This document shows, one piece after another, positions 26,384 to 56,695 of a stretch of DNA of 64,000 nt. Source of the DNA: Escherichia coli (GTDB lineage Bacteria > Pseudomonadota > Gammaproteobacteria > Enterobacterales > Enterobacteriaceae); NCBI RefSeq assembly GCF_022846255.1, contig NZ_AP025682.1, one strand, 5' to 3'. Made by a program: the position numbers and the translations under genes. The notes beneath the pieces are model-generated. The model was not told the DNA's origin, did not search any database, and was given only the letters and a program-made list of their open reading frames with translations. Positions within the stretch are counted from its first letter, which is position 1, and every line of letters starts with the position of its first letter.

Positions 26384-26476
26384 GGTGAGGTGGCCGAGAG
26401 GCTGAAGGCGCTCCCCTGCTAAGGGAGTATGCGGTCAAAAGCTGCATCCGGGGTTCGAATCCCCGCCTCACCGCCA
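26384..26476 (+). tRNA. serV: tRNA-Ser (anticodon GCU), long variable arm
   Basis: 93 nt cloverleaf ggtgaggtggccgagag...ccgcctcaccgcca with anticodon loop cugCUAag and encoded CCA. Confidence 0.93.
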
Positions 26477-26479
26477 TTT

Positions 26480-26556
26480 GCATCCGTAGCTCAGCTGGAT
26501 AGAGTACTCGGCTACGAACCGAGCGGTCGGAGGTTCGAATCCTCCCGGATGCACCA
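26480..26556 (+). tRNA. argV: tRNA-Arg (anticodon ACG), copy 1
   Basis: 77 nt gcatccgtagctcagctggatagagtactcggctACGaaccgag...ggatgcacca; 3 nt after serV. Gene names for the four copies assigned by order only. Confidence 0.9.
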
Positions 26557-26620
26557 TCTCTTACTTGATACGACTTTAGTGGCGGTATCAAAAAATCTGC
26601 AGTAAAGTAAGTTTCCCGAT

Positions 26621-26697
26621 GCATCCGTAGCTCAGCTGGATAGAGTACTCGGCTACGAACCGAGCGGTCGGAGGTTCGAATCCTCCCGGATGCACCA
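26621..26697 (+). tRNA. argY: tRNA-Arg (anticodon ACG), copy 2
   Basis: Identical 77-nt sequence to copy 1. Confidence 0.9.
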
Positions 26698-26759
26698 TCT
26701 CTTACTTGATATGGCTTTAGTAGCGATATCAATATCAGCAGTAAAATAAATTTCCCGAT

Positions 26760-26836
26760 GCATCCGTAGCTCAGCTGGATAGAGTACTCGGCTACGAACC
26801 GAGCGGTCGGAGGTTCGAATCCTCCCGGATGCACCA
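26760..26836 (+). tRNA. argZ: tRNA-Arg (anticodon ACG), copy 3
   Basis: Identical 77-nt sequence to copy 1. Confidence 0.9.
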
Positions 26837-26899
26837 TCTCTTACTTGATATGGCTTTAGTAGCGATATCAATATCAGCAGTAAAATAAATTTTTCCGAT

Positions 26900-26976
26900 G
26901 CATCCGTAGCTCAGCTGGATAGAGTACTCGGCTACGAACCGAGCGGTCGGAGGTTCGAATCCTCCCGGATGCACCA
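26900..26976 (+). tRNA. argQ: tRNA-Arg (anticodon ACG), copy 4
   Basis: Identical 77-nt sequence to copy 1. Confidence 0.9.
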
Positions 26977-29753: not shown

Positions 29754-29825
29754 AAAAGGCCACTCGTGAGTGGCCAAAATTTCATCTCTGAATTCAGGGA
29801 TGATGATAACAAATGCGCGTCTTTC
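29754..29825 (-). ncRNA. micA: Hfq-dependent small RNA MicA (SraD)
   Basis: Reverse complement reads GAAAGACGCGCATTTGTTATCATCATCCCTGAATTCAGAGATGAAATTTTGGCCACTCACGAGTGGCCTTTTT with an intrinsic terminator; in the gshA-luxS gap. Confidence 0.9.
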
Positions 29826-36419: not shown

Positions 36420-36500
36420 GTAGGTATGATAAGACGCGCCAGCGTCGCATCAGGCATTGTGTACAGAGCGGCGGATGAGGCAAAAACGCCTTATCCGCCC
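36420..36500. repeat. REP/BIME palindromic units in the ygaY-proX gap
   Basis: gataagacgcgccagcgtcgcatcaggc and ggcggatgaggcaaaaacgccttatccgcc palindromes. Confidence 0.7.
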
Positions 36501-40174: not shown

Positions 40175-41143
<969 letters not shown>

Positions 41144-43288
41144 TTAAAGTGCACAGGAGACGCAGCCTTCAATTTCAGTGCCTTCCAGCGCCATCTGACG
41201 CAGGCGAATGTAATAGAGCGTTTTGATACCCTTGCGCCAGGCGTAAATCTGCGCTTTGTTGATATCGCGAGTGGTGGCGGTATCGGGGAAAAACAGCGTC
41301 AGCGACAGCCCCTGATCGACATGGCGAGTCGCTTCCGCGTAGGTGTCGATGATCTTTTCTGCGCCGATTTCGTAAGCGTCCTGATACAGCGCCAGATTTT
41401 CGTTAGTCATAAACGGGGCAGGGTAGTAAACGCGTCCTGTTTTGCCCTCTTTGCGTATCTCTACTTTCGCCACAATCGGATGAATACTCGACGTGGCATG
41501 GTTGATATAAGAGATAGAACCGGTTGGCGGCACCGCCTGGAGATTCTGGTTGTATATGCCATAGCGCATCACGTCGTCGCGCAGCTGCGCCCACATCTCA
41601 TGGGTAGGTAACGTAATACCACTACGGGCAAACAGTTCGCCAACTTTCGCCGTTTTCGGCTGCCAGTTCCCTTGCAGATATTGGCTAAAATATTCACCAC
41701 TGGCATAGCGTGACTGTTTGAACCCGGCGAAGGTTTCACCGCGTTCGCGCGCCAGCAACATCGAGGTACGCAGTGCGTGCCAGGTGATGGTATAGAAATA
41801 GAGATTGGTGAAATCGAGTGCTTCCGGCGATCCATAAGCGATGCCTTCTCGCGCCAGATAACCGTGTAAATTCATCTGCCCCAGTCCGATGGCGTGCGAG
41901 GCGGCATTTCCGGCTTCGATGGACGGCACGCTGCGGATATGACTCATATCTGATACTGCCGTTAAACCGCGCACGGCAGTCTCTACCGTGCGGGCAAAGT
42001 CGGGGGAATCCATGGTGTGGGCAATATTCAACGAACCTAAATTGCAGGAAATATCATGGCCTGTACGGGCATAGTCGAGATTCTCGTCATACTCTGAGGC
42101 GCTGTTAACCTGCAAAATTTCTGAGCAGAGATTGCTCATATTTATGCGCCCGGCGATAGGGTTAGCACGGTTAACCGTGTCTTCATACATGATGTACGGA
42201 TAGCCAGACTCAAACTGGATTTCTGCCAGTCGCTGGAAGAAATCACGGGCGTTGAGGTATTTTTTGCGGATGCGTTCATCGGCAACCAGTTCGTCATAGT
42301 GTTCACTGATGGCGACATCGGCAAACGGCTTGCCATAAACTCGCTCTACGTCATAGGGCGAAAACAGCGCCATCTGCGCATTCTCTTTTGCCAGATGGAA
42401 AGTGATATCCGGGATCACCACGCCCAGCGACAGTGTTTTAATGCGGATTTTTTCGTCGGCATTTTCCCGTTTTGTATCGAGAAAACGCAGAATATCGGGA
42501 TGATGAGCATGTAAATAGACTGCCCCAGCCCCCTGACGCGCGCCGAGTTGGTTGGCATAGGAAAATGCGTCTTCCAGCATTTTCATCACCGGAATCACGC
42601 CAGAAGATTGATTTTCAATACGTTTAATTGGCGCGCCCGCTTCCCGCAGATTCGACAGCAAAAATGCTACGCCGCCGCCGCGTTTCGACAGTTGTAGTGC
42701 GGAATTCACTGCCCGGCCAATCGACTCCATATTGTCTTCAATACGCAGCAGAAAACAGGAAACCAGTTCGCCGCGCTGCTGCTTACCGCAGTTGAGGAAT
42801 GTTGGCGTGGCTGGCTGAAAGCGTCCTGACAGCATCTCATCAGTGAGCTGCGTCGCCAGTGTTTCATCGCCTTGTGCCAGCGTCAGCGCCACCATCGTGA
42901 CGCGATCGGCAAAATCTTCCAGATAACGCTTACCGTCGAATGTCTTCAACGTATAGCTGGTGTAAAACTTCCATGCTCCGAGGAATGTCTGGAAACGAAA
43001 ACCGCTGGCGTGCGCGTGGGCAAACAGCGTAATGACAAAATCGCGAGAGTAGCGATTAAGGACGCTTTCATCATAGTAACCTTCGTTAACCAGCCAGTTC
43101 AGGCGCTGCTGCTGGCTACTGAAGGCCACACTGTTCGGACGCACATGCGTCGTCATAAAGGCGTCTACTGCCTGGCGATCTTTATCGAACTGAATGCGAC
43201 CTGCGCTATCGTAAAGGTTAAGCATCGCATTCAGAGCGTGATAATCCATCGTTTCCTGCGTCAGGCGTTCTGCGGTTGTCGTTGCCAA
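41144..43288 (-). CDS. nrdE: Class Ib ribonucleotide reductase alpha subunit
   Basis: 714 aa; C-terminal redox-active cysteine pair ([10 protein letters not shown]). Confidence 0.95.
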
Positions 43289-43671
43289 AATTCGGTTACT
43301 CCTTTACGAACGTTTTCGATATCGCTTTGCGTACCCATGAGTTCAAAGCGGTACAGCCACGGCACGCCGCATTTCCGGGCAATCACATCTCCGGCGCGGC
43401 CATATGCCTCACCAAAGTTGCGATTACCCGAAGCAATAACGCCGCGCAGCAACGCCCGGTTATGCTCGTCGTTTAAAAAGCGAATGACCTGTCGTGGCAC
43501 CGCGCCAGCCGTACCGCCGCCGCCGTAAGAGGGCACGATCAGGATGTAAGGCTCGTCTACCTGAATCCGTTCCCGCTCATTGAGCGGGATGCGCACCGCG
43601 GGCAGCCCTAAACGTTCGATAAAACGCTGCGTATTTTCGGAGCTGCTGGAAAAGTAGACGAGCTGGCTCAT
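43261..43671 (-). CDS. nrdI: Flavodoxin-like NrdI
   Basis: 136 aa; overlaps nrdE by 28 nt and the nrdH stop by 4 nt. Confidence 0.93.
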
Positions 43672-43913
43672 GCACTGGCCGCGTGTGGCGCTGGATGCAG
43701 ACGATTGATCATGTCCGGGCGGAAACCAGACCAGCTAAGATCGCCTGCAATCACAACCGGCAACTGACGAAAGCCCTGAGCACGCAGCGCTTCTGCCGCT
43801 TCAGGAACGCGATCGACATTAATCATTTCAAAATCAAAGCCCCGGTTTTCCATCGCCCGTTTAGTGGCGTGGCACTGAACGCAATCGTTACGAGTGTAAA
43901 TAGTAATGCGCAT
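43668..43913 (-). CDS. nrdH: Glutaredoxin-like protein NrdH
   Basis: 81 aa with CVQC redox motif. Confidence 0.93.
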
Positions 43914-43986
43914 GATTCGTATTTCCGTTTAAAATGAAGATACGGCGCGATGATACGCGTCGGGTTGTCTCTCTGTTGATACAGAG

Positions 43987-44041
43987 ATACTAGATGTAGT
44001 TGAAAAAAGATTCAACCACACAATATATAGCAAATAGTGGT
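43987..44041 (-). promoter_or_regulatory. nrdHIEF promoter region with NrdR-box-like palindromic half-sites
   Basis: acacaatatatagcaa (44026-44041) and atactagatgtagttg (43987-44002) resemble the ACACwATATATwGTGT NrdR consensus; 70-130 bp upstream of nrdH. Confidence 0.5.
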
Positions 44042-44096
44042 CGAAATTACCCTGGGTATGAGCGTGACGGGGTAGGGGGATTTTTGTGATTCACCA

Positions 44097-44128
44097 GGCA
44101 AAAAGAAACCCCGAAGCCAGGCTTCGGG
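44097..44128 (-). terminator. Rho-independent terminator of ygaM
   Basis: Stem ccccgaagc/gcttcgggg with an A-run on the plus strand, giving a T-run on the minus strand. Confidence 0.75.
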
Positions 44129-44160
44129 GTCAAAGACGCGTATTTATTATCATTATTGCA

Positions 44161-55749: not shown

Positions 55750-56179
55750 TTACATATTGTTTTCTTATTGTGATCAAAAACAACAAATTAATAACAAATA
55801 ATGTGAGGGATAAGAATTGGGTTGAAAGGAAATGAATAATTAAAACAATATATTAAGTGTGCTTATACTCTTTTTCGAACTGGTGGCATTTGTTTAAATG
55901 CTATTTAAACTGCTTTTCCAGAGTTCAACTTACTGAGTTCCGTGTCGACTAATGTGAGTAAGATCAATCGCATCCAACCTATGTTACTTGATGGAATCGA
56001 TAACAATATTAATGAATATACAGATTCCGGGAAGGCTGGCTATGGGGGCAAATTATTCTCTTTCTGGCAACAGGTAAATAACAGTGACCATTTGTCGAGA
56101 AGCTGATACTAAGCTGAGGGATACTGTATATGTCTGGACTGTAATTGGATGAATTCTATTCAGGGCGGGTCAGGACCAA

Positions 56180-56332: not shown

Positions 56333-56695
56333 TGGTGGAGCTGGCGGGAGTTGAACCCGCGTCCGAAATTCCTACATCCTCGGTACTACATGCTTAGTCA
56401 GTCTTTACATTCGCTTGCCAGCTGCGGACGGACACGCCACTAACAAACTAGCCTGATTAAGTTTTAACGCTTCAACCCCAGGCAGGGCTTCCACGCGATC
56501 TCTTTTGGGTTTGACCTCTCTTGATCCCCGTCCTAAGAGCGGAGGCTAGGGAGAGAGGGCTCTAAGCAGGTTATTAAGCTGCTAAAGCGTAGTTTTCGTC
56601 GTTTGCGACTATTTTTTGCGGCTTTTTACGAGGCCAACCGCCCCTCGGCATGCACCTTGGGTTTCGCAAATCCCGTCGAATCCAGAATCAGCCCC
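56333..56695 (-). ncRNA. ssrA: tmRNA (transfer-messenger RNA, SsrA)
   Basis: Reverse complement begins GGGGCTGATTCTGGATTCGACGGGATTTGCGAAACCCAAGGTGCATGCCGAGGGGCGG and ends ...GGTTCAACTCCCGCCAGCTCCACCA; 363 nt; tag-coding region present. Confidence 0.97.

Follow-up and report, generated by a model that had tools for sequence, protein, structure and literature searches.

The nrdHIEF operon and the ygaM-nrdH spacer

The interval 43914-44096 lies directly upstream of nrdH in the window, by which we mean the whole stretch of 64,000 nucleotides that was analysed, and the window is part of the E. coli chromosome. The genes ygaM, nrdH, nrdI, nrdE, nrdF and proV follow one another in the same order as in K-12, on the minus strand of the window. 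The nrdH gene (43668..43913, minus strand) encodes a glutaredoxin-like protein of 81 aa with the Pfam domain Glutaredoxin and overlaps by 4 nt the nrdI gene (43261..43671, minus strand), whose flavodoxin-like product of 136 aa carries the domain Flavodoxin_NdrI. The latter gene overlaps by 28 nt nrdE (41144..43288, minus strand), which begins with a TTG start codon and encodes a protein of 714 aa with the domains RNR_N and Ribonuc_red_lgN/lgC, and after a gap of 9 nt nrdE is followed by nrdF (40175..41134, minus strand; 319 aa, Ribonuc_red_sm). All four genes are intact and present in the order and with the Pfam domains expected of a class Ib RNR operon, and the K-12 annotation has the same protein lengths (81/136/714/319 aa), the same overlaps and the same TTG start for nrdE. 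The initial annotation had described an intact nrdH-I-E-F operon with overlaps of 4 nt and 28 nt, a description borne out by the ORF coordinates, the K-12 comparison and the Pfam assignments. In the RefSeq annotation of E. coli strain 7/2, the spacer of which is 100% identical to that of the window, nrdI (L002 1990-2391) is 402 nt long and overlaps nrdE by 19 nt, compared with 411 nt and 28 nt in the window, and this difference in length points to either an allele at the nrdI 3' end or an annotation difference within E. coli. The nrdR gene, which E. coli encodes, is located outside the window. Elsewhere in the window, matches at the Rfam gathering level were obtained to tmRNA (ssrA), the MicA sRNA, a cluster of five tRNAs and naRNA4 (REP-derived nucleoid-associated RNA), in that order at 56333-56695 (minus strand), 29754-29825 (minus strand), 26384-26973 (plus strand) and 36423-36500 (minus strand).

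The 247-bp spacer between ygaM and nrdH has matches in 5,421 of 5,426 complete E. coli genomes, the top match being 100% identical. It is 99% identical to that of K-12 MG1655, with three SNPs (44155, 44117 and 44056), none of which falls within the NrdR boxes, the promoter or the leader described below. The nrdH control region is bounded upstream by an intrinsic terminator of ygaM (44107..44131, minus strand), an 11-bp stem with a T run after it.

Two haplotypes of this spacer occur within E. coli. The short 247-bp form, shared by K-12 and the window, is found in approximately 74% of complete genomes, and in approximately 26% (e.g. CFT073 and EC100) an extra 1.3-1.8 kb is present between ygaM and nrdH, containing an aminotransferase-like gene, which is a pseudogene in EC100, and a gene of the carboxymuconolactone-decarboxylase (CMD) family. 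A CMD gene is located upstream in 41 of 80 Enterobacteriaceae species, and positions 44066-44090 of the window, which has the K-12-type haplotype, are what remains of this gene's last codons. We therefore rejected as a regulatory site the CCCCTACCCCG island (44067-44078), which in E. coli is part of that remnant.

The NrdR box pair and the promoter

The control region contains two 16-bp, A/T-rich and partly palindromic NrdR boxes. The distal (upstream) box, TTGCTATATATTGTGT (44018..44033, minus strand), extends from -105 to -120 relative to the nrdH ATG, or from about -38 to -53 relative to the putative transcription start site (TSS), and the proximal box, CAACTACATCTAGTAT (43987..44002, minus strand), from -74 to -89 relative to the ATG. 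They are separated by the 15-bp linker GGTTGAATCTTTTTT (44003..44017, minus strand), so that their centres are 31 bp apart, within the range of an NrdR operator (a linker of 15-16 bp, i.e. 31-32 bp). Both boxes carry all six of the positions C4, A6, A8, T9, T11 and G13 that are highly conserved in NrdR boxes (bioRxiv 10.64898/2026.05.11.724285). Where the initial annotation had placed two A/T-rich palindromic half-sites resembling NrdR boxes 70-130 bp upstream of nrdH, both the position and the resemblance stand, but the elements are full 16-bp boxes rather than half-sites.

We identify the two elements as NrdR boxes because a position weight matrix (PWM) supports them, because they form part of a DNA fragment to which NrdR binds and because they are conserved in every species considered. 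The PWM was trained on four boxes only, those of nrdAB and nrdDG, with the nrdHIEF boxes left out. The NrdR PWM scan proposed in the initial annotation as the test on which its boxes should stand or fall came out in their favour: the distal box ranked first and the proximal box fourth among 63,985 positions of the window, and at a spacing of 31-32 bp the nrdHIEF pair scored 23.5 bits, compared with 9.9 bits for the next-best pair in the window and with a mean of 8.5, a standard deviation of 2.6 and a maximum of 15.9 bits in 200 first-order Markov sequences. There are four occurrences of the core CWANATNTWG in the window (3.9 expected by chance), two of which are the nrdHIEF boxes. A search of the whole window with the idealised palindrome ACACTATATATAGTGT at up to three mismatches missed both nrdHIEF boxes, which differ from it at four and five positions; its sole match was an unrelated site. 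No second box lies 31-32 bp from this NrdR-box-like 16-mer, ACAATATATTAAGTGT (55845-55860, plus strand; three mismatches to the ideal palindrome, PWM rank 8), which is probably a chance match.

The 57-mer used in published microscale thermophoresis of NrdR binding matches the window exactly, at 43982-44038 on the minus strand, and occurs there once. On this fragment E. coli NrdR binds with a KD of 138 nM in the presence of ATP and dATP and of 187 nM with ADP and dATP, and does not bind with ATP alone (Rozman Grinberg et al., FEBS J 2025, PMC12176259). Isolated nrdEF boxes have also been examined, and neither binds NrdR alone (bioRxiv 10.64898/2026.05.11.724285). Furthermore, a published genome-wide FIMO search combined with nrdR-mutant transcriptomics found the nrdHIEF box pair and derepression of the operon.

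The phylogenetic footprint comprised 80 Enterobacteriaceae loci, obtained from one NrdH scan of species-representative genomes, from genera including Escherichia, Citrobacter, Salmonella, Kosakonia, Enterobacter, Klebsiella and Raoultella. In all 80 species the two boxes of the top-scoring pair are separated by a 15-bp linker, and the pair starts 118-122 bp upstream of the ATG of nrdH. Column conservation was at least 95% at the critical box positions, in GGTTGAA at the start of the linker and in ACTACATCTAGTAT within the proximal box, the linker beyond GGTTGAA being variable. The maxima of the conservation profile correspond to the NrdR boxes and the putative -35 and -10 elements. E. coli genomes of the long haplotype are diverged in the segment from -115 to -152 and have the distal box TTCCCATATCTTGTGT; all six critical positions are present in this box, and it is the commoner type in other genera.

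A candidate sigma-70 promoter was read directly from the sequence, with the -35 element TTGAAT (44010..44015, minus strand), which is strongly conserved and lies in the 5' part of the linker, and the -10 element TAGTAT (43987..43992, minus strand), which is invariant across genera. The two hexamers match the consensus at 8 of 12 positions across a 17-bp spacer and fall under the promoter-scan threshold. Transcription would then start near 43980, giving a leader of approximately 67 nt, and the proximal box would contain the -10 element while the distal box would adjoin the -35. That the boxes overlap the polymerase site is therefore suggested both by our own reading of the sequence and by a published statement to that effect (PMC12176259). 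The putative promoter agrees with this overlap, and also with the literature on IscR, according to which a type II site at PnrdH overlaps a suboptimal -35. The IscR type II pattern is approximately 25 bp long with CCxYA half-sites, the -35 being embedded in the right half-site; fitted by hand over the distal box, it gives CCACA on the complementary strand at 44016-44020 and a partial left half-site. The only call of the promoter scan itself, TCAACA/TATCAT (43979-43950), is located downstream of the putative promoter and was dismissed as being at chance level. In the same region a 10-bp inverted repeat (9/10), TGTGGTTGAA-N6-TTCAACTACA (43995-44020), has its centre in the NrdR linker, connects the facing edges of both boxes and includes the -35; it may be linked to the IscR site or to the bending of DNA that NrdR binding requires.

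Fur binding and the nrdH leader

Fur sites were sought with the classical 19-bp consensus GATAATGATAATCATTATC. No match was found in the window at up to three mismatches, and within 43914-44096 the best 19-mer reached 11/19, short of a good match to a Fur box. This low score agrees with the published nrdHIEF Fur site, which is itself weak (10.1 bits). The initial annotation had called the operon Fur-repressed and iron-independent, and support for this comes from the literature, in which Fur repression of nrdHIEF and the Mn enzyme have been described (PMC4676285) and expression of nrdHIEF is increased 49-147-fold in fur mutants of CFT073 (PMC7157518); the Fur scan of the interval, with at most 11/19, gave no good Fur box. 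Fur repression of the operon is thus well documented yet visible only weakly by consensus scanning.

The position of Fur on this DNA is known from ChIP-exo. Published peaks (PMC10164565 supplement) comprise P87 (2798593-2798627), P88 (2798743-2798772) and P89 (2798753-2798761) in MG1655 and P109 (2799386-2799398) in W3110, and they were mapped to the window via the W3110 nrdH start at 2799379, the coordinate offset being validated with W3110. Two Fur-associated regions result. The upstream one (44031..44065), corresponding to MG1655 P87, is located just upstream of the distal NrdR box; its best match to the Fur consensus is only 11/19, and in the cross-species scan this segment was poorly conserved across genera and scored like shuffled sequence. 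The downstream one (43886..43915), to which P88, P89 and W3110 P109 map, covers the nrdH start codon and first codons, and in CFT073 the centre of the Fur ChIP-seq peak is at +19 of nrdH. Fur occupancy is therefore known here from ChIP-exo and is not predictable from the classical consensus.

The block 43893-43933, which spans the start of nrdH from -20 to +21, is at least 90-95% conserved in the 80 species and coincides with the downstream Fur ChIP-exo and ChIP-seq centres. Its conservation includes the third positions of codons 2-7, later third positions falling to 50-80%, and its match to the Fur consensus is 11-14/19 across all species and 11/19 in the window. Between this block and the promoter, the nrdH leader contains a GC-rich imperfect palindrome, CGACGCG-TATCAT-CGCGCCG (43943..43962, minus strand), with arms at least 90% conserved and a variable loop in the Enterobacteriaceae. 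We considered an RNA hairpin or attenuator in the leader and set it aside as weakly supported: covariation was slight, with 82% of cells paired and a few compensatory changes (an A.C mismatch was kept in 56 of 67 sequences), RNAalifold gave only -4 kcal/mol, and the E. coli leader folded no better than shuffled sequences (z = 0.01), its MFE fold being one without the 43943-43962 hairpin. An Rfam search of the leader and promoter identified no family, with sub-threshold matches only, over the ygaM terminator. It is conceivable, though we regard it as rather unlikely, that the undescribed features of this region, i.e. the conserved leader palindrome, the start block conserved at synonymous sites and the two-haplotype polymorphism with its TTCCCATATCTTGTGT/TAT distal box and different upstream Fur segment, reflect an extra regulator or leader-level control together with strain-specific tuning of nrdHIEF.

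The window's top match to the Fur consensus (tied), AATAATGATAATAAATACG (44139-44157, minus strand), lies outside 43914-44096, between the ygaM stop codon and the terminator; at one position of this site, 44155, the window has T and K-12 has A. Fur control could in principle be exerted mainly through this site, by analogy with Salmonella, in which a functional Fur box is located 309 bp upstream of the TSS (PMC2892513), and at 14/19 it ties for the best score in the window. However, approximately 0.9 matches of this quality are expected per window by chance, the MG1655 ChIP-exo data list no peak at the corresponding coordinates (~2798501-2798519), and the long haplotype puts the site 1.3-1.8 kb further away from nrdH in 26% of genomes, although in CFT073, which has the insertion, nrdH is still strongly bound and regulated by Fur. 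We consider a principal role for this site improbable.

The palindromes upstream of nrdH might alternatively be operators for Fur, or for IscR, instead of NrdR boxes, so that iron control would be exerted through them. Fur boxes are likewise A/T-rich palindromes and the operon is Fur-repressed, the upstream ChIP-exo peak (44031-44065) overlaps the distal box by 3 bp, and the IscR type II site placed over the -35 in the literature may overlap the distal box. Against this, both boxes score below 11/19 with the Fur 19-mer, the main Fur signal in three strains is at +9 to +20 of nrdH, approximately 80-120 bp from the boxes, and the IscR pattern, tentatively fitted by hand over the distal box, gives only partial matches. 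A replacement of NrdR by either regulator at these palindromes is accordingly very hard to sustain.

Regulation of nrdHIEF

The notion that the palindromes are only sigma-70 elements, consisting of a -10-like TAGTAT and an upstream tract rich in A and T, with a coincidental likeness to NrdR boxes, draws on the putative -10 within the proximal box and on the chance rate of single core matches, but it is scarcely credible and effectively already refuted, as none of the 200 null sequences reaches the score of the 31-bp-spaced pair, each box has the full set of six NrdR-critical positions, DNA of identical sequence is bound by NrdR in vitro, and C4, A6, A8-T9 and G13, which are outside the hexamers, are at least 95% conserved in the 80 species. 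The locus is almost certainly the canonical E. coli nrdHIEF promoter-operator.

Our working model of this promoter-operator draws on the present analysis for the identity of the boxes, for the support they have from statistics and phylogeny, and for the intact state of the operon. Two 16-bp NrdR boxes with a 15-bp linker, 31 bp or three helical turns from centre to centre, would bracket the sigma-70 promoter, the positions of the -35, the -10 and the TSS being our own assignments. When dATP is plentiful relative to demand, an NrdR tetramer carrying ATP plus dATP (or ADP plus dATP) would bind both boxes jointly, in keeping with the published NrdR binding and its nucleotide dependence. The bound protein may then occupy the RNA polymerase site, and we infer that this occlusion would repress the operon of the class Ib (Mn-dependent) reductase, the back-up enzyme of E. 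coli. Given the Fur occupancy reported in the literature, Fur-Fe2+ would add iron-dependent repression via weak non-consensus sites, one just upstream of the distal box and one covering the ribosome-binding site and start codon of nrdH, and apo-IscR, the activating role of which is also taken from the literature, would act from the type II site overlapping the -35.

The 57-bp operator of the window is identical to the NrdR operator of E. coli K-12 nrdHIEF, with the same box sequences, 15-bp linker and gene order, and there is no substantive difference between the two, only the SNPs of the spacer. The E. coli nrdDG and nrdAB (box 1 and box 2) operators likewise pair two 16-bp boxes across a 15-bp linker, and NrdR binds them with a KD of 160 nM and 113 nM, respectively, compared with 138 nM for nrdHIEF (PMC12176259). 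They differ from the nrdHIEF operator in their box sequences and in their co-regulators, which are FNR, and DnaA and H-NS, in those operators and Fur and IscR here. The nrdHIEF operon of Salmonella Typhimurium also has two NrdR boxes, mutation of which causes derepression, and is repressed and directly bound by Fur (Panosa et al. 2010, PMC2892513). Its distal box is of the TTCCCATATCTTGTAT type (L016, L029), and the Salmonella Fur box is at -309 from the TSS, whereas the E. coli ChIP-exo peaks adjoin the distal box and cover the start codon.

The nrdHIEF NrdR operator is already known and is textbook-level biology. Control of nrdHIEF by NrdR was predicted in 2005, was demonstrated genetically in 2007-2010 and received biochemical and structural confirmation in 2022-2025. 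The E. coli operator reportedly features in the work of Rodionov & Gelfand in 2005 and of Torrents et al. in 2007. The initial annotation nevertheless shows that a real operator was recognisable from the raw sequence. What the present study adds is modest, namely a footprint across genera that outlines the probable architecture of the nrdHIEF promoter, and the observation that Fur binding at this locus is unpredictable from the classical consensus.
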